Below are positions 114 to 61,700 of a stretch of DNA of 64,000 bases, piece after piece. Numbering within the stretch: position 1 is the stretch's first letter; each line of letters opens with the position of its first letter. This DNA comes from an uncultured Gammaproteobacteria bacterium (GTDB lineage Bacteria; Patescibacteriota; Microgenomatia; UBA8517). The notes below the pieces were generated by a model. The model saw only the letters and a program-made list of their open reading frames with translations. It had not been told where the DNA came from and ran no database searches. The DNA lies in assembly GCA_964502815.1 (NCBI GenBank), contig CAZCXV010000005.1, positions 2,706 through 66,705 on the forward strand, written 5' to 3'. The position numbers were made by a program, and so were the translations under genes.

Positions 114-1430
114 GTGACCAAAGTAACCTCAAAGTTTGTTTGCCAACAATGCGGCTATGAAACTTCTAAATGGATGGGAAAATGCCCTGACTGCAATTCT
201 TGGAACTCACTAGTTGAAACTCTAGTTGAGACAAGAAGTGGAAGTAAAGGCACACAAAGAAATTCAACGCCACTTCTTAAGCCTCAAAAGTTAATAGAAA
301 TAAAGTTAAATAAAAACCAAAGACAAACAACCAACATTTCAGAACTTGATAGAGTACTTGGTGGTGGAATCGTTTCTGGCCAGGTTATTTTAATTGCAGG
401 AGATCCTGGAATTGGTAAGTCGACTATTTTACTGCAAGTTGCTCAAGAGCTAGGAAAAGTATTGTATGTCTCGGGTGAAGAATCAGTTAGTCAGATAAAA
501 CTGCGGGCGGAAAGGTTAGACATAAAAAACAAAGACATAGAAGTATTGGAGGCAACTGATATCGATAGTATTATTGATAGTGCAAATGCCGAAAAGAAGG
601 ACTTAAGTTTACTTATCATAGACAGTATTCAAACAGTTTCAACTCAGGATCTTACTGGTCTGGCTGGCTCTGTTGGCCAAGTAAGGGAATCAGCTTTTAG
701 ACTTGTAAAATTTGCCAAGTCCAGCAGTATTGCTGTAATACTTGTGGGCCATGTTACTAAGGAAGGAACTGTAGCTGGGCCCTCGGTTTTGGCTCACATA
801 GTAGATAGTGTTATTTGGTTTGAAGGCGACAAAAGACTGCAATACCGACTTCTTCGGGCAATCAAAAATAGATTTGGTCCAACCGACGAGGTGGGTATTT
901 TTGAAATGAGTGACAGGGGTCTTATTTCGGTGACTGAAACTGCCAAATTATTTCTCTCGGAAGACAGGAGGTCAGTACCAGGATCAGTTACTACTTCTGT
1001 AATGGAAGGAACAAGACCAATTCTGATTGAAGTTCAATCACTTGTTGTTCCAACTAGAATGGCTTTTCCTAAAAGGGTAGCTCAAGGCATTGATGCCAAA
1101 AGAGTGGAACTAATCCTTGCAGTTTTACAGAGAAGGTGTGGACTTCCAGTTATGGACTTCGATGTTTTTGTCAATATAGTTGGAGGAGTAACAGTTAAAG
1201 ATCCAGCAGCTGACCTTGCGGTTGCTATTTCAATTGCTTCTGCCTATTTTGACAAGCCAGTTGCCAAAAACACTTTAGCAGTTGGAGAAGTAGATTTATT
1301 GGGAGATATTAGACCAGTTAGATTTATAGAAAAAATAACCAAGGATGCCAAAAGACAAGGCTTTAACCAGATTATCTCCAACAAGGAATATAAATACCTG
1401 ACGGATGCGATAAAAACACTTCTTAAGTAG
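114..1430 (+). CDS. radA: DNA repair protein RadA (Sms)
   Basis: N-terminal C4 zinc ribbon (CQQCGYETSKWMGKCPDCNSW), Walker A GDPGIGKST, RecA-like core, C-terminal Lon-like domain; 438 aa. Confidence 0.9.
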   Translation: MTKVTSKFVCQQCGYETSKWMGKCPDCNSWNSLVETLVETRSGSKGTQRNSTPLLKPQKLIEIKLNKNQRQTTNISELDRVLGGGIVSGQVILIAGDPGIGKSTILLQVAQELGKVLYVSGEESVSQIKLRAERLDIKNKDIEVLEATDIDSIIDSANAEKKDLSLLIIDSIQTVSTQDLTGLAGSVGQVRESAFRLVKFAKSSSIAVILVGHVTKEGTVAGPSVLAHIVDSVIWFEGDKRLQYRLLRAIKNRFGPTDEVGIFEMSDRGLISVTETAKLFLSEDRRSVPGSVTTSVMEGTRPILIEVQSLVVPTRMAFPKRVAQGIDAKRVELILAVLQRRCGLPVMDFDVFVNIVGGVTVKDPAADLAVAISIASAYFDKPVAKNTLAVGEVDLLGDIRPVRFIEKITKDAKRQGFNQIISNKEYKYLTDAIKTLLK

Positions 1431-1611
1431 GATTATAAGTTATTCACGAGTTATCCACAAAGACTAATGTCGTTACAATAAGAGCCTAAATAAGGCCATT
1501 TTTCAATACTATATATTATAGGTCTGGTATATATGTTAGGTATTCTATAATATAGGATTTGACAAAGAGAAGGGAGTGGTACTAAAATAGATTTGTACCT
1601 TTTAGCAAAGA

Positions 1612-1691
1612 AAAAAGAGCATCGCAGTCGATAGGTTTTGGGTCTACAGAAACTAGATTCCAAACTATCTACGAACAGAAATGCTCTTTTT
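1612..1691 (+). terminator. Long nested inverted-repeat hairpin downstream of radA; probable intrinsic terminator or structured RNA
   Basis: Outer arms AAAAAGAGCAT (1612-1622) and ATGCTCTTTTT (1681-1691) enclose imperfect inner stems GATAGGTTTTGG/CCAAACTATC and TCTA/TAGA; the T-run follows the 3' arm. Confidence 0.35.
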
Positions 1692-1912
1692 AGATGTAGC
1701 ATCACTTTAAAATGATGATACATGCATAGACTAGAGACATTAATTTATCTTGTCAATAGTGGTTTCGGCCTTGGAATGAACGGGTGGAGAGTAGGGCAGG
1801 CTTACTACCCGTTCATTCTGGGGCTGATTTTTTGTTTTCAGACAAAATTTTCATATTCTCCTTACCCCATAATTTGCTTTTTTTGACAAAAATACCTATA
1901 ATATTTAACATA

Positions 1913-3883
1913 ATGACCGAGAGAAATCAGAAAAAGGACCAAAAAGATATGTTCGGTAAGTATGATTCTGATGGGGAGTGGGATGAAAGTTTAGAAAAAC
2001 AGTTGCCCGATTGGACAAGACAATTGAGTTCCACAAATGACACGATTTCGAGTGTTTCAACAATGTCGAGCCCTAAATCTTCTCCAGTTTCCACTTCTGT
2101 TGTGTCATCAAGGCCAGAAGAGCTAGAAGAACCTGTTGCAGAAGTAAAAACCAAGAAACATGGCCGTAGAAATAGATTAGTTGCTGTTGGTACAGCTGGT
2201 GGTTTGGTTTTATGTCTAGGTGCTCTTTTGCTTGGAGATGAGATTGGTAATATTGCAACAAATATTTCTGATAAGTTACCCAGATTCAACCCTAAGGGCA
2301 CTGCAACAGAATCTGGACAAGTCATTGCAGCAGAAAGTACAGCCACTAGCACTGTAACAGCTTTGCCGTCAGACACCCCTTCTCCAACTGCCTCCTTACC
2401 TCCAGCAAGTGAAACAGTTGCACCATCTACGATGCCTGATACGCCAGCACCCACTGCAACATCAAGTGAAATTATTGATCAAAGAGAATGGAAGGGAGAA
2501 AATGGATACAATGAAAATGGAACAGGCTATCCTGCATGGTTGACTATTCAACAACTACTTAGCGACTATCCATATAAAGATCAACTAACTCGCAAAAATT
2601 CATTACTGACTTCATTAACAAGACCATTTGAAGACTCAGATGCAGATGTTGGTAAGACCCCAGACAACGAACCTGGGATGGGACATGATAAGGGCGATAT
2701 TGAAGCTTACAAGAACCTATATGAAGATGTTATGAAAAATGTTGGATCTATAACTGTAGATCAAATATTGAGGGTAAATGATGAAGGGTTGTTGACTGCT
2801 GGTGTTTATGGTTATACGCACGACCGAGACCCTGAATTTTTATATTTGGTAACTGGATGGGCTGTTCACCAAAATCCAGAGTTGTTTAAAAAACCAGATG
2901 GCAGTTTCATGACCTTAGCTGAAGCTTGGACAAGCAACAAAACTTTCTCAACTCTTAGAAATTTACAACTGAATGCAGTTAGAGAGACACAAAAACAGTT
3001 CACTGGATTGTCGCAAGAAGAAAAAGACAGAAGGGATGGTAATAAAATATATCAACTTGATGCTTCTAGAGAAATTCCTAGCAGACTCCGTTTTGATGAT
3101 GGCCACATTTCTTGTGTGATTTGGATGCAAAACGGTGTTCAGAAATCTCGCCCTGTTCTTTATCAAAGTGGACAAAATAATACCTTTGAAACAGCTAATA
3201 GTGATACGGCACGAAGCCTGGTGGTTATGACAATTAATCCAGAAACTGGAGTGTTTGATATAGATGAACGCGACATTCGAGGATACAGTGGCAGTGCTGG
3301 AGTTAGTGGAGATGAAAATTCAATAACGGGTGACAATAAACTTCCTTGTGGAAATGGCCAAGGTGCTTCCGAAGTCCCAAGTCCTATTCCATCAGCCACC
3401 TCTAGCGTTATTACCACAGCCTATCCAACCTACACTCCAACTGCTCCAGCACAAGGAAACACTCCTGAAGTTGTTGCTACATCAACTACAACCTCTGCAA
3501 CTAGAACACCCAGGCCAACAAATACGCCTGAAATAGTGAATACACCGACTCCAGGCTCTACCCAAATTGCAACTGCTACTGCAACTAACTTACCTCCAGC
3601 TACAGAAACACCAAGATCAACCGAAGATCAACCTCCAACTCCAGGCTTTACACAAGTTGCTACTCAAAGGCCAACAGAGGAGCCAACTTCAGAGTCAACA
3701 GTTGAAAGTGTGGGATACCCAAGAGCAAGTTATATTGATAGACACAACGATAAACCTGAGACTTATTATGATAATAAAAAACATAATGCACAGGTAGGAC
3801 GCAGAAATCAAAAAAGGGATACTTTTGGATTTAGAAATAAAATTGACCATAAAAGTCAACCATATAAGCATAGAAAATATTGA
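1913..3883 (+). CDS. Membrane-anchored Thr/Pro-rich surface protein of unknown function
   Basis: ATG at 1913 sits just downstream of TTGACA (1883-1888) and TATAAT (1897-1902). One TM helix (LVAVGTAGGLVLCLGALLLG), long Pro/Thr/Ser-rich low-complexity tracts, basic C-terminal tail. The six-frame ORF call from 1784 probably over-extends 5'. Confidence 0.5.
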   Translation: MTERNQKKDQKDMFGKYDSDGEWDESLEKQLPDWTRQLSSTNDTISSVSTMSSPKSSPVSTSVVSSRPEELEEPVAEVKTKKHGRRNRLVAVGTAGGLVLCLGALLLGDEIGNIATNISDKLPRFNPKGTATESGQVIAAESTATSTVTALPSDTPSPTASLPPASETVAPSTMPDTPAPTATSSEIIDQREWKGENGYNENGTGYPAWLTIQQLLSDYPYKDQLTRKNSLLTSLTRPFEDSDADVGKTPDNEPGMGHDKGDIEAYKNLYEDVMKNVGSITVDQILRVNDEGLLTAGVYGYTHDRDPEFLYLVTGWAVHQNPELFKKPDGSFMTLAEAWTSNKTFSTLRNLQLNAVRETQKQFTGLSQEEKDRRDGNKIYQLDASREIPSRLRFDDGHISCVIWMQNGVQKSRPVLYQSGQNNTFETANSDTARSLVVMTINPETGVFDIDERDIRGYSGSAGVSGDENSITGDNKLPCGNGQGASEVPSPIPSATSSVITTAYPTYTPTAPAQGNTPEVVATSTTTSATRTPRPTNTPEIVNTPTPGSTQIATATATNLPPATETPRSTEDQPPTPGFTQVATQRPTEEPTSESTVESVGYPRASYIDRHNDKPETYYDNKKHNAQVGRRNQKRDTFGFRNKIDHKSQPYKHRKY

Positions 3884-3916
3884 TTCCTAGAATAAGAAAG
3901 CCTATAATTTGCAAAA

Positions 3917-5422
3917 ATGAAAGTATTAAGAAAAATGTCACTTAAAAAGTCACTTGCTATCTATTTAGTTTTATTTAGTCTATCTGTTTTTGCCCTAAAC
4001 TTTATTAGAACAAAGATTCTTCTGGCGCAAACCTTAAGGGGAACTGATGCAACATTTGATATCTTTAATGGAACAAACTTTGGCGCAGGCAGTGGCTGGG
4101 TAGATCCAGTATCAGCAAATATCAATGAAGGAATTCAGGGTAAAATTACGGCTTGGAATACTGAAGAAGGAACAAATGCGGTTTACACTAAAGTCAGAAT
4201 TGAAATACCAGTAAGTGTTGGGACATCTCACCAGATAATTGCTCATCTTTGGGCCGATAATGCAGCTGAAGTTACAGATACATTAACTATAAATACTACG
4301 GTTCCAACTAGAATTGTGTATCAACCAGGCCATGCAGTGGTTTATTCTCCAGCATGTCCCAATTCATGTCCAATTACAGATAACGCTTTGATTGGGTCTG
4401 GTGTTACTATAGGAAACATCTTAAGTGGCGGAACTGAAAGTGCACAGGTTCATTTTAAAGTGACTATTCTTGAACCAGAACCAACACCAACACCAACTGC
4501 CACGCCTACAGCCACACCGACAAGTACGCCAACTGCTACTCCAACTAGTACTCCCACAAGTACGCCTACAGCCACACCAACCATGACTCCAACTAGTACT
4601 CCTACGGCTACCCCCACTCTTACACCTACAATAACACCAACTGCCACCCCAACAGCAACTCCTACTCCTGATACTCAATTAAAACTTTGTAAATATGAAG
4701 ATGATAATGGGGACGGGGATAGGGATAGTGGTGAAAATGTCCTAAGTTGGAGATTTAGAGTTACTTATAATGGGGTCGTCAGGGATATAGATAGCCACTG
4801 GTGGAATCTTTTTAGCCAAGGTTGTGTAATTATCGATGTTCCTGCAAATACATCTATCACAGTTGAAGAAGAGGGTAGGGCTGGCTGGAGACTAACGGAC
4901 TTGTGGCAAGATGGCCAAAGGGTGAATAACCAAGCAACTTATTCCTACATTTCAAATATTGACAATGTAAAAGTGCTCTGGTTTTTGAACACTTTTACTC
5001 CAGGAGTAACCAATGAAACCAGTAGTTGCGATGATTTGGATGCAGCCCCAACTTCGGGAACAGAAGACCTGACGGTGGCATTTACTGGAAGGGGAGCAAA
5101 CTCAAATGGCTCAATAGACCAATATGAATTTAATTTTGGCGACGGAAATATTACTTCCCAAAGCTCAAACACAGTTTCTCACATCTATTATAATTCTGGA
5201 AGCTATAACGCAAGTCTTAAAGTAAAAGACTCAAGGGGTAACTGGCTATCAAGTGATAATTGTAAATTGACTATAAACGTCAATGCCAAGCCGCAAGTCT
5301 TGGGAACAACTTCTCCAAAGGAGCTGCCAAAAACTGGAGCTACTGGACTGATGTTTATAACTTCTTCATTAATCTCAGTTACATCTGGCATCTACCTATT
5401 TAGAAAGTTTAGATTAGTTTGA
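3917..5422 (+). CDS. LPXTG cell-wall-anchored surface protein with Thr-Pro linker and PKD-like domain
   Basis: N-terminal signal/TM; (TPTA/TPTS)n linker; PKD-like segment (FNFGDGNITSQSSNTVSHIYYNSGSYNASLKVKDSRGNW); C-terminal LPKTG, then hydrophobic stretch, then RKFR tail, which is a sortase sorting signal. Confidence 0.7.
   Translation: MKVLRKMSLKKSLAIYLVLFSLSVFALNFIRTKILLAQTLRGTDATFDIFNGTNFGAGSGWVDPVSANINEGIQGKITAWNTEEGTNAVYTKVRIEIPVSVGTSHQIIAHLWADNAAEVTDTLTINTTVPTRIVYQPGHAVVYSPACPNSCPITDNALIGSGVTIGNILSGGTESAQVHFKVTILEPEPTPTPTATPTATPTSTPTATPTSTPTSTPTATPTMTPTSTPTATPTLTPTITPTATPTATPTPDTQLKLCKYEDDNGDGDRDSGENVLSWRFRVTYNGVVRDIDSHWWNLFSQGCVIIDVPANTSITVEEEGRAGWRLTDLWQDGQRVNNQATYSYISNIDNVKVLWFLNTFTPGVTNETSSCDDLDAAPTSGTEDLTVAFTGRGANSNGSIDQYEFNFGDGNITSQSSNTVSHIYYNSGSYNASLKVKDSRGNWLSSDNCKLTINVNAKPQVLGTTSPKELPKTGATGLMFITSSLISVTSGIYLFRKFRLV
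4483..4675 (+). repeat. In-frame tandem 9-nt (ACN CCN ACN) repeat tract encoding the Thr-Pro-Thr linker
   Basis: Directly visible degenerate ccaacaccaac... repeats. The antisense frame yields the artefactual (VGVA)n ORF 4450..4647. Confidence 0.8.
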
Positions 5423-5429
5423 ATAGGAT

Positions 5430-6152
5430 ATGTATCCCAGAGGTGTAATATATCAATTTGGAGTTTCTAAAAGACGGGGAGTAATAAGTATCAAAGCCCC
5501 TCTTGGAGTTAGGGCTGCCTATTTCTTGTTTAGAGGTCTGGGGGCAGGCTTCATTGGTTTTGCCGTTATGGCCTTCGTTTTCACTTTTGGGCCTCCAATT
5601 AAGGAAGAATTAAACTACCGACTGGTCAAAAAAGATGATCTTGATTATCTTGAACAACTCAAGTTTGCCCAGGCTCAAAAAACCTCAGATATTCAGGAAG
5701 AAGCTAAAGCCCTAGGTCTTGACTCCTATTTCTCTTTGTATATCCCAAAGCTAGAAGCTAAAGCCAAAATAATTTCCAATGTTGACCCAACTGCCAAAGA
5801 AGAATACCTCTCTTCCCTGCAAAAAGGCGTTGCCCACGCCAGAGGGACGCATTTTCCAGGCCAAGGGAGTTTAATATATCTTTTTGCCCACTCAACTGAC
5901 TCCCCAGTCAATTTTACCAGATATAACGCTGTTTTTTACCTTCTCTCAAAGCTGGAACAAGGGGATATCGTTACGGTTTACTTTGCAGACAAGAAGTATG
6001 TGTACCGAGTATCGGATAAAGTATTAGCCAAGGCTGAAGATACCTCTTGGCTGACAAAGGAATATGGTGAGGAAGTGTTAGTCCTGCAGACTTGTGATCC
6101 TCCAGGAACTACTTGGAATAGACTTTTGGTTATTGCCAAACCCATCCCATAG
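5430..6152 (+). CDS. Sortase family transpeptidase
   Basis: N-terminal TM anchor, conserved His (LFAHS), catalytic LQTC (TLxTC) motif and downstream Arg; lies immediately after an LPXTG substrate gene. Confidence 0.7.
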   Translation: MYPRGVIYQFGVSKRRGVISIKAPLGVRAAYFLFRGLGAGFIGFAVMAFVFTFGPPIKEELNYRLVKKDDLDYLEQLKFAQAQKTSDIQEEAKALGLDSYFSLYIPKLEAKAKIISNVDPTAKEEYLSSLQKGVAHARGTHFPGQGSLIYLFAHSTDSPVNFTRYNAVFYLLSKLEQGDIVTVYFADKKYVYRVSDKVLAKAEDTSWLTKEYGEEVLVLQTCDPPGTTWNRLLVIAKPIP

Positions 6153-6155
6153 TAC

Positions 6156-6184
6156 TTGACAAAGCTTTTTTTGTATCCTATAAT
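6156..6184 (+). promoter_or_regulatory. sigma70-type promoter (TTGACA-17 nt-TATAAT)
   Basis: TTGACA 6156-6161, exact 17-nt spacer, TATAAT 6179-6184, 7 nt before ATG 6192. Confidence 0.45.
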
Positions 6185-6191
6185 TCCCCAG

Positions 6192-7268
6192 ATGTACAAA
6201 AAGCTTGCCTTTACAGCTTTAATAGTTGCCCTAGTAGCCGGGTTTATTTTCTTTGGAAAACTTCTAGTAAAAGCTGCAACCTCGGTTTCTTTCGATCCAG
6301 CAGTAGTAGCTGTTAATCCTGGGGATTCTGTAACTGGTGATGGCAGTTTGATGTGTGGACTAATCATCGGAAATAGCGGAGAAAACACCGTTTCCTACAT
6401 TCAAGAAGGAACCCAACCTTCAGCTTATGGAGCAAACAATAGCGATGTCGATCTAAATAGCTTCCAAAATGGCTGTTTGCCAAAAGGTTTTGGAATTGCC
6501 GATTTGGGGGATGGAAGTAGCGCGATGAGTAAAACTCATTTGTATGACTTTAGTTTTTCGGCTGGAACTACAGTCAACGCTTTTTCAATCTCTATTTCTG
6601 ACTGGGGAGATTACTTGCCAAATGTCAAAGGAATGGCAGGTCGCCATGAAATGATTCTTACCGCCTATGATTCTGCTAATACAGTACTTGATACTGCAAG
6701 TTTAGTTTTTGATACAGATTATAACGCCAAAGCCGTAAATAGAAATTCTCCACAATTTGGGGCAATGACTAGGGCAGGAGACGCCTGTCAGGCAACCTCT
6801 GGCCAGCCGGGAAACTTTACTTTAACTGTTAATGGATCTGGAATCGCCAGAGTTGAGCTAAGATATGCCGATGCCCAAAGTTATGATCCAAATATTGGGA
6901 TTTCTGACATTACCTATGTTTTAGAGGATGGCGCTGTTGCAACTAGATGTGCTGGAACACCAGTTACTTCACCTGTACAAAATGATATGTGTGCAAATAT
7001 CGAAGGAGTTCAAACCAGTGTTCCAAACGACTATCATATCGACGCTTCGGGCAGAAACTGCGTCCAATATCAATTGGGTGGAGCACCACAAAACAGTGGA
7101 TCAAATAGTGGCCAGGTTTTAGGAACAACTACAACCAAAACAGGATCTGTCCTGGGAGTATCTACTTTGGGAAGTACTGGAAGCTTAGATGACCTAATGA
7201 ATATTGTTTTTACCTTAGGCGCAGGCTCAGTCGCCTTTGGGCTTAGAAAATCCTCTCTTGACAAATAA
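6192..7268 (+). CDS. Secreted protein with possible non-canonical C-terminal sorting signal
   Basis: Signal/TM (MYKKLAFTALIVALVAGFIFFG). C-terminus is LGSTGS, then a 20-aa hydrophobic stretch, then RKSSLDK. The ORF-tool TTG start at 6156 overlaps the promoter -35, so ATG 6192 is preferred. Confidence 0.5.
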   Translation: MYKKLAFTALIVALVAGFIFFGKLLVKAATSVSFDPAVVAVNPGDSVTGDGSLMCGLIIGNSGENTVSYIQEGTQPSAYGANNSDVDLNSFQNGCLPKGFGIADLGDGSSAMSKTHLYDFSFSAGTTVNAFSISISDWGDYLPNVKGMAGRHEMILTAYDSANTVLDTASLVFDTDYNAKAVNRNSPQFGAMTRAGDACQATSGQPGNFTLTVNGSGIARVELRYADAQSYDPNIGISDITYVLEDGAVATRCAGTPVTSPVQNDMCANIEGVQTSVPNDYHIDASGRNCVQYQLGGAPQNSGSNSGQVLGTTTTKTGSVLGVSTLGSTGSLDDLMNIVFTLGAGSVAFGLRKSSLDK

Positions 7269-7332
7269 GGGTAATTTGGTAGTATATAGCTACTTTAAGT
7301 CTTCCTTGAAGTAAAGAAGTTTTCTTCCGAAA

Positions 7333-8550
7333 ATGAACGAAGATACACAATCTAATAATTCGCTTGTTGTAGATGACAGGATTTTGCCCGATTCAAACCT
7401 GCCTACAGAATATGTTGAGGGTCTTTTGGATATTGCCAATGAAGGCTCAGGACTTTTAAGGAGAAGTTACAATGGTACCGAAAAAGATGTCTATATCTCG
7501 GGCTCACAAATAAGAAGATTCATTCTGAAAAACGGTGATCTTGTTGGCGGCCTTGCCAGACGACCCAAGGAAAATGAAAGGTATTGGGGACTTTTAAAAG
7601 TTGAAACTGTAAATGCAATTCCAATTGAACAGATGTCTCAAGACCGACCAAGTTTTGACGATCTGACTGCAGTTTATCCCGATGAGCAGATTAAAACTGC
7701 AACTGGCTCTGAACCTCTGACGACTAGAGTAATTGACCTAATTGCTCCTATTGGCTTTGGTCAAAGGGCCTTGATTGTTTCCCCTCCAAAAGCGGGTAAG
7801 ACTTGGTTAATTAAAGACATCATGTCTGGCATTGCCCAAAACTATCCTGAAGGAAAAGAAAATGGCGTTCATTTAATGGCGGTTTTAATTGGGGAGAGAC
7901 CCGAGGAAGTAACCGATATTGGGCTGCATATGAAGAAGATTACCGAAGGTCGTGGAGAAGTTGCTTCCAGTAATTTTGATGAATCTCCAGAAAAGCAAAC
8001 CAGAATTTCAGAACTGGCTTTGGATAGAGCCAAAAGGTTGGTTGAAGTGGGTCAAGATGTGGTTATTGTTCTCGATTCTATAACCAGGCTTGCCAGAGCT
8101 TACAACCTTGCTCTTCCGACTTCGGGAAGAACTCTAACTGGGGGGTTTGATCCAATTGCTCTATTCCCAGCCAAGAAATTTTTTGGAGCTGCCAGAAAAA
8201 TCGATGGTGGTGGATCTTTAACCATTATTGGAACCTCTTTAGTTGAGACCGGCAGTAGGATGGATGACTTAATTTATGAAGAGTTTAAAGGGACAGGGAA
8301 CATGGAGCTTCATTTAGTCAGAAGGTTGGCTGAAAGAAGAGTCTTCCCGGCAATTGATGTCTCTAGGAGTGGGACTAGGCAAGAGGAACTTTTATATGGC
8401 ACAGATCTAATGCCAACCATTCTTACTTTAAGAAGAATGTTAGATATCTTGCACGATGATGAGCGAACAGAAAGCTTTTTAGAGCGACTTAGAAAAACCC
8501 AAAACAACGAAGAATTCCTGGCCACTTTAAAAACTGCTGCAAAAGAATAA
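7333..8550 (+). CDS. rho: Transcription termination factor Rho
   Basis: Walker [19 protein letters not shown] motif, RecA-type ATPase core, with an N-terminal extension. Confidence 0.9.
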
Positions 8551-8553
8551 TTT

Positions 8554-9690
8554 CTATTTTTTGACAAAATCAAGATAATTTTCTCTTGATATCAATTTTA
8601 CTTCAACTTTATAGAGATCTCTAAAAGTTTTTGGGGTAGTAATTTTTTTGCTTTTCCATTTGAACTCAAACGCTCTAATCTTATTTTCCTTTATTTCCAC
8701 CCAATCAACTTCTGCTTTTTCATAGCTTCTCCAAAAGAAGTTCTGAACAGTTTCTTGATTATATTCCTGTACCTTAAGGCGTTCTACAGCTAAGAAATTT
8801 TCCCAAATTTGTCCAATGTCTGGACGGATATCTAGAGAGGCAAACTGGCCAATCAATGAGTTTCTTACCCCAATATCCCAAAAGTAGTACTTTTTGCTCT
8901 TTACAACTTCAGTTCTTAAATTTCTGGAGAATGCTCCTAATTCAAAGATAATAAATCCGCTTTTTAATAAGTAGATATACTTAGATATTGTTTTAACGTC
9001 AACTTTAAGTTTTGTTGCCAATTCATTTAGAGAAACCTCAGAACCTAATTGGAAAGCAAGAAGAGTTGCTAGGTTTTTTATAACCTCTGGATAGGCTATT
9101 TGTTGTAAAGTTGTTATTTCTCTAAATAGATATTCATTTGCCAATTTTTGCAAATAAGCAATTTTTTCGGAAGGAGATCCTAGTTGAGTTAAATATGGAT
9201 ATCCGCCGAACAATAATTGATTTTCTAAAAGATATGGAGTTTGGTATTCTTCAAGATTTTCAGACAATTCAGTTGTTGAAAAAGGAAAAAGATGAAATTC
9301 ATTAATTCGTCCCGTAAGAGTTTCTTTCATGCCTGTTGCAAGATCTAGAGACGAAGAGCCTGTAACAATAACTTTTTTGTCTGGAAAGTTGTCAATAATT
9401 ATTTTTATAGACAGTGCAATGTTTGGAATCCTTTGTGCTTCGTCTATTGAGATGACGGAATAGGGCTTTACTAAGTTTTCTAGGTGCACTATGGAGGTAT
9501 TTCCTAAGGCATCTCTTGCTTCTTGAGTGTCGCCATTGAGATTTAAGACTTTTTGTAAGTCTTTTTCTAGAGAACTGACAACCTGATTTAAGAGTATAGT
9601 TTTTCCTACTCGTCTAGGACCATAAATTACGGTTACAAAACCAGGCTTAAAAGAATTCAAGATGACTGGAAAAAGCTGTCTTTGTATCAT
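8554..9690 (-). CDS. AAA+ ATPase, AAA_14/DUF4143 family
   Basis: Walker A GPRRVGKT near the N-terminus, Walker B hhhhDE; C-terminal DUF4143-like region. Confidence 0.65.
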   Translation of the reverse strand: MIQRQLFPVILNSFKPGFVTVIYGPRRVGKTILLNQVVSSLEKDLQKVLNLNGDTQEARDALGNTSIVHLENLVKPYSVISIDEAQRIPNIALSIKIIIDNFPDKKVIVTGSSSLDLATGMKETLTGRINEFHLFPFSTTELSENLEEYQTPYLLENQLLFGGYPYLTQLGSPSEKIAYLQKLANEYLFREITTLQQIAYPEVIKNLATLLAFQLGSEVSLNELATKLKVDVKTISKYIYLLKSGFIIFELGAFSRNLRTEVVKSKKYYFWDIGVRNSLIGQFASLDIRPDIGQIWENFLAVERLKVQEYNQETVQNFFWRSYEKAEVDWVEIKENKIRAFEFKWKSKKITTPKTFRDLYKVEVKLISRENYLDFVKK

Positions 9691-9863: not shown

Positions 9864-10970
9864 ATGGAAGAAGTTTACCAAGACCTGAATAAATTTATTG
9901 CAAACTTAAGGCTTTTTAGCTTTGAGCTGGCAAAATTCCTCCTGCATACTTTCCACCTGCAATTTCTGAAGTTTGAAAATCACAAGGGAAACTTTGTAAA
10001 TGCTCTTTATAAACAAAGAGGAAGATTATCAAGAAAATTAATACATTCTGGCATGGCCTCAATTACAGCCTTGGGAATTATGATTGCCCCGGTGATTGCC
10101 CAAGAGCTTCCCGGCCGCACTGTTGACCCTTGGAATATAGCTCCCAAAACTCAGGTTTTATCCGCCAGTATTGAGGATCAATCAACAGCCACTATAGTTT
10201 CTGATAAACCCAGATCCCAAGTTGAGGAATATCTTGTTCAAGAAGGGGATACTGTAGGAACTATCGCCGATAAGTTTGGTATTTCCCAGGACACTATCCG
10301 TTGGGAGAATAACCTGGTTAAAGATAAAATAAAGCCTGGGGAAAAACTAAAAATTCTGCCTGTAGCTGGGATTTCCCATAAGGTGAGAAAAGGGGATACT
10401 GTTTATTCAATTGCTAAAGAGTACGACACTTCAGAACAAGGAATAGTTGACTTTCCATATAATTCTTTCTCAAATGATGAAACTTTTGAATTGGCAGTGG
10501 GACAAATTATTGTTGTTCCAGATGGGGTAAAAAAGCCAGAAGTTACGATTCCTGGTTCTGGCGCGGTCAGACCAAGACAAACAACTCCAGACGCCGGAAC
10601 AGTTGTTGCTTCGGGCCAATTTGTCTGGCCAACCCAAGGAACTATTTCCCAAAGATTTGCTTGGTATCATCCTGGAGTCGATATTGCCAATAAAAGCTTA
10701 CCGCCAATACTTGCTGCTGACTCTGGAAAAGTAATTGCCTCTGGCTGGGATCCGTCTGGCTATGGAAATAAAGTAATGATTGATCATGGTAATGGCTATA
10801 TAACTCTCTATGGCCACATGTCTAAATTATATGTCACAATAGGACAAACTGTAACAAGAGGCAATCAAATAGGTCAAATGGGCTCAACTGGAAGATCAAC
10901 CGGGCCTCACCTACATTTTGAAATCTACAAAGGGGGAACAAGGCTAAGTCCATTCCTGTATTTGAAGTAA
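9864..10970 (+). CDS. LysM-domain M23 family metallopeptidase (cell-wall hydrolase)
   Basis: Two LysM motifs (GDTVGTIADKFGIS, GDTVYSIAKEYD); M23 motifs HPGVD...GHMSK...GPHLHFE. The true start is probably the internal ATG at 10053 (MASITALGIMIAPVIA, a TM helix). Confidence 0.8.
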   Translation: MEEVYQDLNKFIANLRLFSFELAKFLLHTFHLQFLKFENHKGNFVNALYKQRGRLSRKLIHSGMASITALGIMIAPVIAQELPGRTVDPWNIAPKTQVLSASIEDQSTATIVSDKPRSQVEEYLVQEGDTVGTIADKFGISQDTIRWENNLVKDKIKPGEKLKILPVAGISHKVRKGDTVYSIAKEYDTSEQGIVDFPYNSFSNDETFELAVGQIIVVPDGVKKPEVTIPGSGAVRPRQTTPDAGTVVASGQFVWPTQGTISQRFAWYHPGVDIANKSLPPILAADSGKVIASGWDPSGYGNKVMIDHGNGYITLYGHMSKLYVTIGQTVTRGNQIGQMGSTGRSTGPHLHFEIYKGGTRLSPFLYLK

Positions 10971-11043: not shown

Positions 11044-12339
11044 ATGACAAGGAAAGAAATCTTGAAAAGTATTATTTTAGAGAGCCAAAATAGGCAAATG
11101 CCTCAGATTTGGCCCAGAAATTTGGTTTTGCCAATTGACTCCGGTAAGATAGTTACCTTGATGGGGGTGAGAAGAAGTGGTAAGACCTACCTTTTGTTCG
11201 ATTTAATAGATAAACTCATCAAAAAAGGCATACCTTCAAAGAGAATCTTTTATTTGAATTTTGAGGATGAACGTTTGAAACTTAACTCTCGCGAGCTTGA
11301 CTTAATAATACAGTCTTATAGAGAAATATATCCAGATAACGATTTATCAGAATGCTACTTTTTTTTCGACGAAATTCAAGAAGTTAAAGGTTGGGAAAAA
11401 TTTATTATCAGACTATATAACACTATAAGTAAGCAGATCTTTTTAACTGGGTCAAATGCCTCCTTTTTATCAAAAGAAATAGCTACAGCGCTAAGAGGTA
11501 GGACTGTTACTTTTGAAGTTTATCCATTGTCATTTAAGGAATATTTAAACGTTCTTTCTCCTGGTCTTAACCCACTCCATTCTAGTGACAGAGCTAAGGT
11601 TGTCAGTTTTTTTGATAGATTTCTACATCTAGGGGGGTTTCCTGAGATGGTAGACAGAAAAGACAATTTGCATGAAAAAATACTTCAGGAATATTTCAAT
11701 GTTATGGTTTTTAGAGATCTTATAGAAAGATACAATATATCCCAGGCTTCAATACTTAAATATTTCTGTAAAAGAGTAGTGGCCAATAGTGCTTGTGAAT
11801 TCAGTTCTAATAAAATATACAATGAGATTAAGTCTCAAGGTTATAAAGTTGGTAAAGACGCTATCTACAACTACCAAAACAACGTTGAATCTATTTATCT
11901 TGCTAGATTTATTCCGAAATACTCGTATTCAATCGTTAAAAGTGAATTATCTCAAAAGAAGAGCTATGTAATTGATCAAGGTCTGGGAGTAGCTCTAGAC
12001 TTTAAGTTAAATCAAGACAAAGGAAGGTTATTGGAAACAGTTGTCTGCTTGGAACTATTAAAGCAGGGCAGTTCAATCAGCTATATCCAAAACGGAACAG
12101 AATGTGATTTTCTAGTTGTTGAAAAAGATAAAGTTACAAAGGCAATTCAAGTTGCCTTTGATGTTTCAGATGAAAAAACAAAAGGCAGAGAATTAAAAGG
12201 GTTAATTGAAACTTGTAAGAAGTTTGAGTTGAAAGAAGGATACATTCTTACTTTAGATGAAGAAGAAGAATTAATAACCAAAAATCTAAATATCCATATT
12301 GTTCCAGTCTGGAAATATTTTACTTTCGACACCCTATAA
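11044..12339 (+). CDS. AAA+ ATPase, AAA_14/DUF4143 family (paralogue of 8554..9690)
   Basis: Walker A GVRRSGKT; same architecture as the minus-strand paralogue. Confidence 0.65.
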   Translation: MTRKEILKSIILESQNRQMPQIWPRNLVLPIDSGKIVTLMGVRRSGKTYLLFDLIDKLIKKGIPSKRIFYLNFEDERLKLNSRELDLIIQSYREIYPDNDLSECYFFFDEIQEVKGWEKFIIRLYNTISKQIFLTGSNASFLSKEIATALRGRTVTFEVYPLSFKEYLNVLSPGLNPLHSSDRAKVVSFFDRFLHLGGFPEMVDRKDNLHEKILQEYFNVMVFRDLIERYNISQASILKYFCKRVVANSACEFSSNKIYNEIKSQGYKVGKDAIYNYQNNVESIYLARFIPKYSYSIVKSELSQKKSYVIDQGLGVALDFKLNQDKGRLLETVVCLELLKQGSSISYIQNGTECDFLVVEKDKVTKAIQVAFDVSDEKTKGRELKGLIETCKKFELKEGYILTLDEEEELITKNLNIHIVPVWKYFTFDTL

Positions 12340-12447: not shown

Positions 12448-15400
12448 TTACCAGATGGCAATCCAATCAATAACTGTATCCTCCAGAGGAGCAGTTGCTA
12501 CATTTATAGTAAAGCCTGTTTCATCTCTATTTGTTAGCCAAACATTGGTGTTATAAGAAGGAGTAATGCTAACAGAAACGGGCTTTGTCTCCCAAGTTTT
12601 ATTTATGCGTACTGAAGTCTGGCCGGCAGGAAGTATTTCACTTCCTCTAAAGGTTGGATTACCAATAATTTGACCCTTTTGGATATTTAAGTTTCCTTTA
12701 GTATCTACTTTGAGTAAGTTACCCATTATTTCCACATCCCCCAGTGCCAATGGTTGGATTTTTAAGGTGCCAATAGCGTCTATAGAGGAGTCTAAGGAAG
12801 AGATTTGAATAGCGCCAACATTTAATTTACCTGTAACTACGACGTCATTTAAAGTGGTAAGACCTGTAAGGCTTGCGCTAGCAGACGCTGATTGAATTTC
12901 TCCAGATTGGGTTGCAGTTCCAAGAATTTGTTGTTGACTTTCTAAAAGCGCAATCTTTGTCTCCAACTCTGATATTTTTGTCGAAAGTTCTATGTCTTTG
13001 TCTTTGAGGTTGGTAATATCTTTCATTAAATCTGTGTTGTCTTGTGTATCTAAATTATTGATTTTGTTATTTAGTTCTAGAATGTAAAGGGAATTTGTCT
13101 CTGCCGTTTCCCAGAGTTGAGAAGCAAGGGAGCCAAGGGAGAATTTGCCATTTTTCCTCCATTCATCGCGCCCTGCAATTGTTGGCAAGTGTCTGTTTTG
13201 ATTAACATATACTCCCATTTCATCTAAGGTCATCATAGAGTAATCTCCGTGTAGATCTATATCTTCTTGTCTCACATTTCCATCAAAGTATTTGTCGAAA
13301 ACATAGTCGGTCAAGAGGACATTATCATCATATACAGCAACTGCATTTAAGGTTCCTATTCCTTTTGCTCCTCCTGTTGGGGCACCAACTACTACAGAAC
13401 CATCCCCATAAGTAGTCAGGGTTGCAGCATCATCATTATTTGCTATTTGAAACACCGTCTCTGCAGCTGCCAGATCGACAATACCGGTGCCACTTCCTTT
13501 GGCACCCACGAGTTTAATTGCAGGGACGGTGTCGTCGGGAGTATTGCCCAGGATGCCTCGAAGGGAGAGTGCTTGAGCGGTATTGACGTTATCTGCCAGG
13601 GCGGTGAGTTGAACTCCACCATCTGTGGATGAGATGGCACCAACGTGTAAGAAGGCATCGGTATTGGCAAGCGTTGTGACTCCATGAGCCACATCGCCAT
13701 CGGTCATGCTGAAGGTGGAGTCAGAGCCAGAAGCGCGGAAAAGTTCGAGCGTGGTGTCGGGGGTGCCGTCAGCACCACCGATGACGGTGTTGCCGTCTTC
13801 AGAGTTGATGATGGTGGTATTGGTGCCCACATCAGAAATATCTGTCGTATTGCTTTCTAATTGATTGAAAGAAATCACGTTATCAGCTTCTGTACTTGCC
13901 GCTATGTTTATACCTATGTCTCCCGCGCCGGAAAATCCGGAAATGCTGTTGCCATTTATAATGTTGCTGTCAGAATTGGTAACAACGTTTATACCCTTGC
14001 CACCGGTCCCATCATCCACAATTGTGTTGCCGGTGACGGAATTGTAAGAAGCGGTCCACAGAGCGATAGCTCCCTGCGCTGAACCGGGATTAGTAATCGT
14101 ATTACCCGTAATGCTATTGTAGTTTCCCTGGGAAAAGACGAATGAATTTATACCACCCTCGTAGGTATTGTTGGCAACGACTATTGAATTTGCGGTGGCA
14201 ATAATACCGTACTGCCCATAGGTGTTTTGCTCAAAATGGTTATTTTCAACACTGTTATAGTGTGAAGAACTCGCAAAAGCAATCCCGGCATAATCTTGAT
14301 TGAGGAATGTACTGCCGGTGATTGTGTTGTATTGGGATGATGTAGTAAGCTGAATACCGTATTCATCTCCGCCGGTAAAATAGAGATTCCGAAATACAGA
14401 CTGTATTGCCCCTGCTCCGATCATTATCTGATAACTATTTCCTCCCCCATTTTGCGCCGTAGCATCAACTTGAAAATCAGAAAACGTGAGGTAATCTTTT
14501 CCATTCAGGTTAATGATGTGTCCCGGCGTCCCCCATGATGCCCAGGCGGAAGCGACGATCTTGCTTCCCTTCCCCGCGCCTCGGATCGTCGTATTGTTTG
14601 CATCAATCGTGATGGATTCTGTACACGTATAGGTCCCCTCAGGCAGGTAAACTTCTCCTCCATTTGCCCCTAACGCATCGATGGCGGCATTGATACCTGT
14701 ACACGTCTGGGCATAGACAGTGCCGTCAACAGTAATCACTTTGTTTAATTCTGGTGCATACACCGTGCCATCACCCAAAATATACAAAGCATTTGAGTTG
14801 TCGTTATTTGCAACTGCAAACACTGTATCAGCTGCTTCCAGATCTATCACTCCGGTTCCTGAAGCCAAAGCACCAACAAGCTTGATGGCAGGAGTAGTGT
14901 CGGTGGGAGTAGTCTGGACTGCCTTGATTTCAAGTGCTTGCCCATCAGCATCGGCAAAAGCAGTGAGTCTAGCACCGCCAACAGTAGAGGAGATGGGAGC
15001 AAGATGGAAGAAAGCATCAGTATTGGCAAGTGTGGTCACCCCGTGGGCGACATCATCATCGGTCATGGCAAAGGTAGGGTCAGACGAGGCAGCGGTATTG
15101 AGTTCGAGGAGATAGTCTGGGGTAATGTCACCACCAATGCTTGTATTGCCAGAGAAGTAGTTGTAGGTACTAGCATCGGATGCGTAAAACGAATACGGAG
15201 TGTTGGTTTGGGTGCCAGCTGTAAGATCGCCGATATAGACTCCGTAGGTGTTAGTAAACGTTCCAGAATTGGCTTCTACATCTGTATAGAACCCATAGAC
15301 AGTAGCTGCTGTTGCGGAAGACCGCCAATCTATTCCTGATGCTACTCCACTGAGTGTCGAAAGCGATCCTGTTGTTGCGGCAGATAGAGCTCCGGATTCG

Positions 15401-58785: not shown

Positions 58786-61700
58786 TTGGTTAAGAATCTG
58801 CCCGGATCGCTTGAAGAAGAGAACAAAAAATTGGTACAGATCAGTAAAGCTGCTCTGATTTTAGGTGTCTCTATTGATACTTTGAGACGTTGGGATAAAA
58901 AAGGTATCTTAAAAGCAGTCAAATCTAAAGGTAAACGTTTCTATTTACTTGAAGAACTTGAAAAGTTTGGTAAAGAGAAAACAAAATCTTCTACCTATGC
59001 AAATACATATGCAAATGAGCCTGAAAAAACAGAAAAACTAGATTGGCAAGTTTTTCAATGGTTGAGTAGTGCAGTTGAATCAGTTAAAAAGGCTCAAGTC
59101 AGGCTTTTGTCTTTCAATAAAATTATAAGGTTTTCAGTTTTAATACCCTTGGTACTATTTCTGGTTGTCATTTTTCTTGTCTCTTTTCTATTTTTACTCA
59201 AGCCCCGGGCAACTACAGAGTTTTTTAATTATAAATTAAAATCTCAAATAGTTAATGAGAAAGGGGAAACTGCAGCAGTTTTGGCGGCACAAACCTCAAG
59301 TGAAGCAATTTCAAGCCAAAATATCATTGCAAATTATCTTCAAGGACCAGCTAATATATCGGTGAAGATACTGCGAACTATTGGAAATGAGCAAGCTACA
59401 GAAATTGTTCTACCATCTGAAGAACTTGATCAGATTAGGCAGCGGCTGGGAATTGTTGGAGAAGGGGATATAAGTCCAAACGGTAGTTTAGTTCTTAGAG
59501 ACATTTCTCAGATTAAGATTGGAAACGAAGACTTGTTGACTAGATTAAATACTGAGTTTTCCAAAACACCAGACCAAAATACAACTATCGAGACTAGAAT
59601 TGGGGAAATAAAATCTGATTCAAATCGGCTTAGCGTTAACTCCTTGGACGGAGTGTCCGTTTTTAGTCTTGATTTAGCAGGTATACTTGCCGATATTTCA
59701 GCAGATTCTGTTAAAAGTGAGAATATCAAAGATGGAGAAGTTAAAAATTCCGATCTTTCCCAAATTACCGATACAAATAAAGTAGCTGGATCTGCAGTTC
59801 AACTTTCTTCAACTGGAGGACTAATAAACAGTTCTGGTCTTTCATTATCTATTTCTTGCTCTTCAAATCAAATTCTTGTCTGGGATGGTGATTCTTGGGA
59901 ATGTGGTACTCAAACTGGTGGAGGCGGTGGGTCTTATTTAGCTGGTAATGATTTAGACATAACGGGGACGACTTTTGATATAGAAGCAACTTTAGATAGT
60001 GTATCTACTGTCAACTTTTTAGGAACTGGGACAATAAATGGACTTGATTTAATTGATGACACATCAGAATCAACAATTGAAAGTTCTATTGATACGCTGG
60101 CAAATCTTACTTCTGCCTCCTCTTTAGTTACAGTTGGAACATTGACAGGTGGGGCTACTGGGTCTGGTTTTACACTGAATTTTGGTTCTTCTACCTTATC
60201 AGGCAATATTACAGGTACAAATATATCGGGAATTGATATTTCAGATGATACAAATTTATCAGCAACAAGTGGAATAAGTTTAACGGGAGATCAATTAACG
60301 GCCACTTTAGGAACAACAATTGCCAATTCTGAGATTGATATCGATACAATTAATTTTGATAGGCTCGATTCAAGCCTGACTTTAGATGAAGCAACAACAA
60401 TCTCATCAGGATCCGCTCTTGGATTTAGTATTGGCAACAATGTAACTTTTGCAGTAACCGGAACAGGTCAAATAATTGCAACAGACTTATCATGTAGTGA
60501 TTGTATTGGTTCAACAGAAATATCGGGATTGACTTGGTCAGAGATTTCTTCCACCCCAACCACTCTCTCTGGTTATGGAATTACTGATGGATTATCAACT
60601 TCAATAATTCAAACAGCAGATGGATATTTTGGCGATATCTATCTCAAAGATGATACCTCTCCATCTCACTATCTGCAAATCACCAATGCCCAGAATCTAA
60701 CTGCAGCCCACGTTCTTTCTATTTCAACATCAGATGCGGACCGTACACTGACCATTTCTGCCAATTCAACTATCTCTGGAACAAATACAGGAGATCAGAC
60801 GATAACCCTTACAGGAGATGTAACAGGAAGTGGAACAGGAAGTTTTGCAGCAACTATTGAAAATGACAAGATTTTAGAAGTGCATTTAAAGGCAGTTGAT
60901 GGGGCAACAGATGAAGAATGCCTAACTTATGAATCAACCGTCGGAGATTTTGAATGGCAAAGCTGTGGAGCTGGAGGATCAACAACTTGGGATGCAATTG
61001 GTGATCCTACTCTTGGGGGAGCTATTGCCATGGCTGAGACTACTCAAACAATGGACTGGAACAGTAATGACGTTACAGCCCTTGCAGTTGATGGTTTAAC
61101 GCTTACCTATACTAATGATGCGGCAACTGACATTTTAAACCAAAATCTTTTGACCTTGGCAAATGTCAACACTTCTGGGTCTAGTACTACTGAAGCTTTG
61201 TTGGTGATTGACAACAGAGATACTAATGAAGCAGTTACCGCTGGTATTCGGATCATTTCTGCAGCAGGTGGGATAACAAAGGGAGTTGATTTTGACGATA
61301 CCGATATTGTAACCGACATTGAATTTCAAAATGACGAAACAATGGATAATAATACTAACGGCCAGCTTACCTTCACCGGTGTAGGTCAGACAAATAATGG
61401 CACATTGACACTTGATTTAGAAACAAATAGCATACCAACCTTAACATCTTCAACAGATACTGCAATAGGAATAGACGAAGATCTGCAGTTTATTGGAGCG
61501 CAAACTATAAGTACTTCAACTGGAAACCTAACAATTGATTCTGGAGCAAACACTATTTTAGCAGATGCAACAATCCAGCTTTCAAATGCAGGTTTTGCGT
61601 CTTGTTCTACTTTAGCGACAGATTCTTCCGGAAACCTTACTTGTAGTGGTATTGGAGATACTGCTTCTTTTAGCGATACAACGCCTGCAGCTATTGCAGA

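Follow-up and report, generated by a model that had tools for sequence, protein, structure and literature searches.

Little is known about the way in which bacteria of the Candidate Phyla Radiation (CPR, or Patescibacteria), most of them uncultured, build their envelopes and cling to host cells. The locus described here raises the question of which of its surface proteins are handled by a sortase, and by which one. It lies in a 64-kb stretch of contig CAZCXV010000005.1 (the window), where a sortase gene and the genes of three putative surface proteins, here called P1, P2 and P4, are enclosed by radA and rho. Judged from the sequences of its genes, this is very probably a housekeeping-type sortase locus of a Woesebacteria-like CPR bacterium, with P2, a protein ending in an LPKTG sorting signal, as the substrate of the enzyme. 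Open reading frames (ORFs) of the window were mapped and translated, and their domains were searched by Pfam and NCBIfam. The four consecutive surface genes that a sequence-only reading of this DNA had placed between radA and rho are all present:

114..1430, forward strand: radA, with Pfam matches to a zinc ribbon, a KaiC-type ATPase and Lon_C/ChlI; upstream boundary of the conserved locus, 482 nucleotides (nt) before P1.
1913..3883, forward strand: P1, an ORF for a type-II membrane protein of 656 amino acids (aa); 33 nt before P2.
3917..5422, forward strand: P2, an ORF for a 501-aa LPKTG surface protein; 7 nt before the sortase gene.
5430..6152, forward strand: the sortase gene (PF04203; 240 aa); 39 nt before P4.
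6192..7268, forward strand: P4, an ORF for a 358-aa secreted protein; 64 nt before rho.
7333..8550, forward strand: rho, with Pfam matches to Rho_RNA_bind and ATP-synt_ab; downstream boundary of the conserved locus.

The enzyme is a true sortase and belongs to a family that is typical of CPR but falls in no established class. It matches PF04203 at 73.4 bits (against 26.6) and TIGR01076 at 48.5 bits (against 39.35), and its catalytic residues were located by alignment:

5889-5891, forward strand: His154.
6093-6095, forward strand: Cys222, within VLQTC.
6120-6122, forward strand: Arg231.

In alignment, these three residues fall on the catalytic positions of class C sortase structures, and they are invariant in a 28-sequence alignment of homologues that are 51-64% identical to the window protein. 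The sequence-only reading had described a sortase with an LQTC active site directly after P2 and had named a missing His/Cys/Arg triad as the observation that could overturn it; it is borne out on both points. The protein starts with a conserved N-terminus (MxPxGxIY) followed by a membrane helix (aa 32-53; 5523-5588), and its AlphaFold2 model (predicted local distance difference test, pLDDT, 79.7) comprises an N-terminal helix with the membrane segment in it, a long helical stalk (aa 25-94) and a beta-barrel catalytic domain (aa 101-238). A Foldseek search against PDB gave 124 matches at E ≤ 0.001, and all 50 among the matches listed are sortases. At E ≤ 1e-5, 1478 homologues were found, the named ones from Candidatus Woesebacteria or the Patescibacteria group and one of them named ‘class E sortase’ by NCBI; an identical protein is encoded on groundwater metagenome contigs of PRJNA292723.

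Class assignment by hidden Markov model (HMM), which the sequence-only reading had proposed as a check, yielded no class, and neither did the fold. The candidates tried and rejected were class D (54.5-55.5 bits against NCBIfam cut-offs of 140-165), class E (30.6 bits against 160; the conserved adjacent substrate is LPxTG and only P4 carries an L[A/G]xTG-like motif) and class C (52.6 bits against 160; the enzyme lacks both the DP[W/F/Y] lid and a C-terminal membrane helix, and ends 9 residues past Arg231). No class A model was among the NCBIfam matches, and class A structures ranked below those of classes C, D and E with E-values of the same order. By Foldseek, structures of classes C, D and E match the enzyme alike (E ~1e-8), while sequence identity to solved sortases is 15-28%, the best sequence matches among them being the class C enzymes 2xwg, 8t28 and 3re9. 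Because classes C, D and E are equally distant by both NCBIfam and Foldseek, no class is claimed here.

Paralogues of this family without the catalytic Cys were also seen, at L152 730-1347 (QTGSPPGT), L156 3641-4258 and L157 3650-4267 (both QTDYPPGM) and L029 10708-11631 (QTSHPPGT), and may be pseudo-sortases. The L029 copy follows an LPETG protein, and those of L152 and L156/L157 immediately precede a tail gene and a short sortase of the kind described below.

P2 is composed, in order, of a signal peptide, a domain D1 (aa 45-185), a Thr-Pro linker, a domain D2 (aa 251-362), a PKD domain and a sorting signal; D1, D2 and the PKD domain are all beta-sandwiches. Its C-terminus reads QVLGTTSPKE-LPKTG-ATGLMFITSSLISVTSGIYLF-RKFRLV, where ATGLMFITSSLISVTSGIYLF comprises 21 uncharged residues:

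5324..5419, forward strand: sorting signal of P2, with LPKTG at 5324-5338 (aa 470-474), the membrane helix at 5339-5401 and RKFRLV at 5402-5419.
4472..4672, forward strand: Thr-Pro linker of P2 (aa 186-252; 186-250 in the structure model), with imperfect tandem repeats at 4481-4665; predicted disordered (pLDDT 42-56).
4450..4647, reverse strand: a 65-aa (VGVA)n shadow ORF that mirrors the linker-coding tandem repeat; not a gene.

The tail passes the LPXTG_anchor model TIGR01167 (19.4 bits against a cut-off of 15.9), and L470, P471 and G474 are the sole invariant columns across 32 P2 homologues. The PKD domain, matched by Pfam at aa 376-452 (48.3 and 41.5 bits for PF00801 / PF18911, above gathering score), spans aa 368-456 in the AlphaFold2 model and superposes on the PKD domain of ColG with a template modelling (TM) score of 0.85 and a root-mean-square deviation of 1.7 Å; D1 and D2 gave nothing in Pfam or NCBIfam. 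These results agree with the earlier description of 3917..5422 as a PKD/Thr-Pro protein ending in LPKTG, a hydrophobic helix and RKFR. The model as a whole has a mean pLDDT of 82.4 (79-98 in the domain blocks, mostly >89) and shows an N-terminal signal-peptide helix and a disordered LPKTG segment between the last domain and the terminal helix; its closest PDB match is the Staphylococcus aureus LPXTG adhesin SdrD. From this adhesin-like string of domains we infer a possible part in attachment structures, as had been proposed from the sequence. The (VGVA)n ORF, already suspected of being deceptive, is not a gene because it lies inside a gene with homologues and a confident structure model; a counterpart stands opposite the linker of the LPKTG protein in another assembly, L085 (GCA_034680565.1).

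Among the ORFs of the window, only P2 and P4 (the latter with LGSTG) end in L[PAG]x[TSA]G followed by a hydrophobic stretch and a basic tail. Since there are only two such ORFs and both motifs are kept in homologues, the LPKTG/LGSTG pattern is beyond chance.

The setting of the pair was compared across 80 related genome loci, whose ORFs were called and matched to the window proteins. These loci come from metagenome-assembled genomes (MAGs) of Woesebacteria, Curtissbacteria, Daviesbacteria, Shapirobacteria and Gottesmanbacteria. Together with the named homologues of the sortase, they place the window in a Woesebacteria-like member of the Microgenomates. A rho gene lies beside the sortase in 38 of the 80 (67-83% identical to the window rho) and radA in 30 (50-73% identical to the window radA). 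In such radA/rho loci the ORF directly upstream of the sortase nearly always (~35 loci) ends in LPxTG, a hydrophobic stretch and (K/R)(K/R)F(K/R)L(V/I), with LPKTG, LPATG, LPSTG, LPVTG, LPEAG and others as variants of the motif and usually (Q)VLG(A/T) before it. Most related loci have a single substrate gene, and the N-terminal domains of the upstream LPxTG proteins vary widely, a PKD domain plus sorting signal being common to ~20 loci. By gene order and motif, P2 and the sortase are a dedicated predicted substrate-enzyme pair found at a conserved place on the chromosome. The radA-(LPxTG gene)-sortase-rho arrangement was worked out in the present analysis; no description of the position of the pair between radA and rho was found in the literature searched. 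According to PMC6744442, over half of CPR genomes, and nearly all of those from Microgenomates, carry one sortase family; a closed Microgenomates genome has been noted to encode a sortase (PMC7143001), and ‘sortase motifs’ on CPR surface proteins have been mentioned (PMC5220378). The sortase-LPKTG pair is ordinary for the lineage, because sortases are published as near ubiquitous in Microgenomates.

Many of these loci with Woesebacteria-type synteny (L007, L010-L012, L019, L023, L024 and others) are titled ‘uncultured Gammaproteobacteria bacterium’, and these labels on the MAGs are probably a placeholder or wrong taxonomy.

The four-gene island in full recurs in one other assembly, L085. There a Thr/Pro-rich membrane protein is followed by an LPKTG protein that shares 51% identity with P2 over the first domain, a sortase (61% identical), a full-length P4 orthologue in the same position (44% identity) with an MAATG tail, and then rho.

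P1, the first protein of the island, has a single membrane helix (aa 89-108, by hydropathy) after a charged N-terminus that is predicted to be cytoplasmic, and Thr/Pro/Ser-rich stretches (38-47% T+P+S) and a central globular part, matching the Thr/Pro-rich membrane protein seen upstream in the sequence-only reading. It lacks a sorting signal and has no match in Pfam or NCBIfam; its orthologues are a weak one in L085 (24% identity, E 1.5e-14) and another in L024. In many related loci, the protein encoded just before the LPxTG gene is rich in Thr and Pro and begins like a lipoprotein or with a single helix (for example, L009 2916-4442, L023 4613-5224, L024 2883-4430, L034 3436-4899 and L016 4672-5241). 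Such proteins often end in a recurring PTN(E/A/K)D(I/L/T)(I/F)P; P1 occupies the same position without that ending.

The spacing of the genes and two sites on the forward strand bear on how the island may be transcribed:

3880..3908, forward strand: promoter-like TTGATT-17-TATAAT, a 10/12 consensus match only, ending 9 nt before the P2 start codon.
6156..6184, forward strand: perfect sigma-70-type consensus TTGACA-17-TATAAT (12/12), ending 8 nt before the P4 start codon.

Of the best five promoter-like matches in 1400-8700, four stop just short of a gene start (P1, P2, P4 and rho); the total count of such sites is not above chance, and none precedes the sortase gene. P2 and the sortase gene, with a 7-nt gap that holds no promoter-like site, are very likely co-transcribed as a bicistronic message, and the arrangement suggests that P4 may be transcribed separately from its own promoter-like site. 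The site at 6156-6184 would yield a leaderless or near-leaderless P4 transcript.

By analogy with S. aureus SrtA, P2 would pass through Sec and stay tethered to the membrane by its C-terminal helix and basic tail. Next, Cys222 would cut LPKTG between Thr and Gly, giving a thioacyl intermediate, and P2 would be passed to an amine of a peptidoglycan precursor, so that an adhesin-like stalk would stand covalently on the wall. A different outcome, in which a class C-like enzyme joins P2 (and possibly P4) head to tail into a pilus or fibre, would draw on the class C enzymes as best sequence match among solved structures, on a substrate gene adjoining the sortase gene as in pilus islands, and on the three surface-protein genes around one sortase. 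Yet the sortase falls far short of the class C model (53 bits against a cut-off of 160) and by fold resembles classes D and E as well as class C, and most related loci, with their single substrate gene, have very different N-terminal domains. Because P1, P2 and P4 carry neither a YPK pilin motif nor an E-box and the sortase has neither lid nor C-terminal helix, a sortase-polymerised pilus is very improbable, and anchoring of single P2 molecules by a housekeeping-type sortase is the reading retained.

P4, the last protein of the island, begins with a signal peptide, continues with an N-terminal domain of unknown fold and ends in a C-terminal module made of a Cys-containing unit (6984-7067) and an LGSTG-type tail:

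7146..7265, forward strand: tail of P4, with VLGVST-LGSTG at 7146-7181, SLDDLMN at 7182-7202, IVFTLGAGSVAFGL at 7203-7244 and RKSSLDK at 7245-7265.

In the sequence-only reading this end had been taken for a possible non-canonical sorting signal composed of LGSTG, a 20-residue hydrophobic segment and RKSSLDK. The motif and the basic end stand, and a sorting signal is supported by the conserved tail family described below; the hydrophobic segment, which follows an acidic spacer, has 14 uncharged residues (17 counting LMN) and not 20. Neither P4 as a whole nor its N-terminal domain or tail matched Pfam or NCBIfam, the tail not even at E ≤ 10, and the tail did not pass TIGR01167. Full-length P4 has six other homologues in 5.8 billion proteins, and the tail is in place in four of the six (LADTG twice, LGNTG and LGATG), one of which has an unrelated N-terminus. 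Within ~6 kb of the window-family sortases of the 80 loci, no P4-type tail was found.

The Cys-containing unit before the tail, of ~30 residues with the pattern D-x-C-x-N-I-x-G-x-Q-x-x-V-P-x-x-Y-H-x-D-x-x-G-x-N-C-V, has no Pfam match; elsewhere (P0128, P0129, P0132 and others) it is repeated many times in tandem, the 2410-aa P0128 having as many as 26 matched stretches.

A search with the 106-residue C-terminal module of P4 against 1.84 billion representatives gave 363 representative matches at E ≤ 0.001 and 133 at E ≤ 1e-10, and 154 proteins were retrieved. A consensus tail is found in 111 of the 154: VLGAST-[M/L][A/G]xTG, a spacer of 4-8 usually acidic residues, 14-19 uncharged residues (mode 14) and a Lys/Arg-rich end, with ~30-32 residues after the TG. 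MAGTG (37), MAKTG (15), LGATG (10) and MAATG (8) are the commonest pentapeptides. The tail is joined to very diverse and in many cases unrelated N-terminal parts, and many of the proteins are small, secreted and Cys-rich. This [M/L][A/G]xTG tail family was defined in the present analysis and is not a curated one; P4 fits its definition, VLG(A/V)(S/T)T followed by [ML][AG]xTG, an acidic spacer, a hydrophobic stretch and a basic end. The sequence-only reading had also allowed that the C-terminal ends of P2 and P4 might be simple membrane anchors with no motif conserved in orthologues; LPxTG of P2 proved invariant, and 111 of the 154 proteins with the tail module have L/M-[A/G]-x-T-G where P4 has LGSTG.

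A second kind of sortase accompanies this tail. Directly after each of three tail proteins on long contigs lies the gene of a 183-198-aa sortase, and for a fourth tail protein it lies one gene further on. In a metagenome scan seeded only on the tail module, which returned 79 loci, a same-strand sortase starts between -100 and +60 nt from the stop of the tail ORF, often overlapping it, in 54 of the 63 loci that were informative (≥400 nt of downstream sequence); in 4 more of the 63, the tail gene is the first of a tandem pair preceding the sortase. Such pairs were seen among L088-L090, L092 and L094-L172 (for example, L111 4521-5264 with 5206-5802 and L097 129-671 with 678-1205). The partner sortases (175-210 aa) keep YGHN (His), LTxYTC (Cys) and Arg in 98-100%, are ~22% identical to the window sortase and score below every class cut-off. 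When they were clustered at 62% identity, an 8-member subcluster contained only partners of LG[AT]TG tails, and a 25-member cluster went with M[AG]xTG or LAGTG. No description of the [M/L][A/G]xTG tail and its short partner was found in curated models or the openly searchable literature.

At L098 1-3513, L111 1-3570 and L133 3-3494, proteins of ~1170 aa end in VLG(A/I)STELP(A/G)TG, a helix and a basic tail. Their LPxTG-type genes lie two genes upstream of an MAxTG gene and its short sortase, often next to gyrA; LPxTG and MAxTG substrates therefore occur in one cluster.

Is the tail a sorting signal? It might instead be a conserved linker plus an uncleaved membrane anchor, on a protein that is, for example, a partner or regulator of the sortase. 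Such an anchor would fit the short hydrophobic stretch (mode 14 residues), the lack of a match to any curated sorting-signal model and the acidic 4-8-residue spacer after TG, which is longer than in classical LPXTG signals. It fits poorly with the motif itself, in which Gly is at position 5 in 111 of 111 tails and Thr at position 4 in 101 of 111, as expected of a scissile Thr-Gly bond, or with the ~30 residues that follow, whose hydrophobic stretch and basic end have the layout of known sorting signals. Nor would it explain why many unrelated N-terminal domains carry the tail, as they would a portable signal, or why the tail gene commonly overlaps the start of a short sortase. An uncleaved anchor is unlikely on this evidence, and the tail is probably a true sortase signal.

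Which enzyme would read it on P4 is harder to say. A short sortase (YGHN...LTxYTC...R type) is the usual partner and is absent from the window; the adjacent long sortase is therefore only one of two options. The other is a short sortase elsewhere in the genome, the present adjacency being a remnant of the order long sortase-tail gene-short sortase. Members of the window family stand beside a tail gene and short sortase pair in L107, L117, L118, L152 and L156-L158. L158 has an intact copy directly upstream of the tail gene and the short sortase directly downstream, and L152 and L156/L157 have the equivalent order with a window-family copy that lacks the catalytic Cys. The 54 of 63 tail genes directly followed by a short sortase, the 8-member subcluster paired only with LG[AT]TG, the subtype closest to LGSTG, and the perfect promoter consensus of P4 itself point the same way. 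Against a distant short sortase stand its absence from the 64-kb window and from the interval between sortase and rho in L085, and the tail that two assemblies, with sortases 61% identical to each other, both keep beside the long enzyme. As the island is repeated in L085, the tail is therefore maintained beside the long sortase without an adjacent short one. Processing of P4 by a short sortase encoded elsewhere is a serious candidate that falls short of an even chance; processing by the adjacent long sortase can be put forward tentatively, with rather more doubt than confidence.

Taken together, the data may point to an undescribed second CPR sortase system, in which a portable VLGAST-[M/L][A/G]xTG tail on many small, Cys-rich secreted proteins would be read by short sortases (~175-210 aa) encoded immediately downstream, and in which, in the lineage of the window, the long sortase may have taken over and may read both LPKTG and LGSTG. 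The chances of this proposal in full are nearly balanced, inclining slightly against it.

Several points weigh against the account given here of the long sortase, P2 and P4. The long sortase stays below every class-specific NCBIfam cut-off (55 bits for D, 53 for C and 31 for E, the cut-offs being 140-165), and no biochemical evidence on any CPR sortase or substrate was found in the literature searched; on the acceptor side, PMC5220378 treats the structure of the CPR envelope as unsettled. For P4, the hydrophobic segment is short and weak, with a Kyte-Doolittle mean <1.5 over 19 residues. A tblastn search with short sortases found none in the 64-kb window, although this is the usual partner of the P4 tail, and the gene directly after P4 is rho, not a short sortase. 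In L031, the nearest locus by sortase identity (65%), the P4 homologue has no tail, and the tailed P4 homologues P0123 (L087) and P0122 (L091) have no nearby sortase, their contigs ending a few hundred bases upstream.

For the biology of these cells, the sortase-LPKTG pair adds little; it confirms the published Microgenomates sortases and supplies substrate detail and the radA-rho address. The core feature is ordinary for the lineage, and the P4 tail is the more interesting lead. More useful are the two signal-enzyme pairs, LPxTG with the long sortase and [M/L][A/G]xTG with the short one, which could help to predict from sequence the surface proteins that CPR bacteria anchor to their walls, to guide the choice of peptides for in vitro specificity assays (candidates SPKELPKTGATG, VSTLGSTGSLDD and ASTMAGTGSFAE), and to aid the search for new sortase specificities, with a possible use in protein ligation.

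Further features were noted around the locus. Downstream of rho, two AAA_14/DUF4143 ATPase genes (8554-9690, reverse strand, and 11044-12339, forward strand) flank a LysM/M23 peptidase gene (9864-10970); L085 has a peptidase in the equivalent place without the two ATPase genes. Two giant ORFs, 12448-18279 (reverse strand; 1943 aa) and 58786-63051 (forward strand; 1421 aa), start with a MerR/HTH_17 DNA-binding domain. The 1943-aa ORF also has NosD/beta-helix repeats. It is odd to see a cytoplasmic regulator domain fused to a body that resembles a surface protein; a 2032-aa counterpart lies at the same relative position in L085. To the left of the window, L001 carries two LAGLIDADG homing-endonuclease ORFs (461-988 and 2267-2785) a few kb upstream of an S1-domain gene and radA; in CPR bacteria, LAGLIDADG ORFs typically lie within rRNA insertions.

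Among known systems, S. aureus SrtA shares with the window enzyme an N-terminal membrane anchor, the His/Cys/Arg triad and the xLxTC motif, and its substrates (SdrD) resemble P2 in their signal peptide, successive beta-sandwich domains, stalk of low complexity and LPKTG followed by a helix and a basic tail. Unlike SrtA, the window sortase carries a conserved N-terminus on the cytoplasmic side and a long helical stalk, and its host is a CPR bacterium; to our knowledge, a substrate gene fixed directly upstream of the enzyme gene is not typical of SrtA. The SrtB-IsdC system (NPQTN) is likewise a pair of neighbouring, very likely co-transcribed genes for an enzyme and its own substrate, comparable also in that motif subtypes go with enzyme subfamilies among the tails described here, but motifs and functional context differ, and no iron-uptake genes are found at the window locus. 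The class C enzyme SrtC-1 of Actinomyces oris (2xwg) is the best match among solved structures both by sequence (E 3.3e-7) and by fold (E 4.8e-9) and also has its gene next to that of its substrate; it differs in the lid and C-terminal helix that the window sortase lacks, in the pilin motif missing from the window substrates, and in belonging to a class whose model cut-off the window enzyme misses by far. Family fam000526 (Meheust et al. 2019, PMC6744442) resembles the window enzyme at the level of CPR-wide sortases, and not as a family of which it is a confirmed member; in the passages of that paper seen here, no substrates, sorting motifs or synteny appear, and a text search for LPXTG was negative. 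Class E (Streptomyces coelicolor SrtE1 and Thermobifida fusca SrtE) is close in two respects: P4-type tails include LAGTG, LAATG and LASTG, and 5cuw and 9m4u rank with the structures closest in fold to the window sortase. The window and short sortases, in contrast, score 23-32 bits against the class E cut-off of 160, and the P4-type motif, unlike the LAxTG signals of class E, mostly starts with Met, always follows VLGAST and is succeeded by an acidic 4-8-residue spacer after TG. With these differences, LAxTG of class E is the nearest known signal to the [M/L][A/G]xTG tail.

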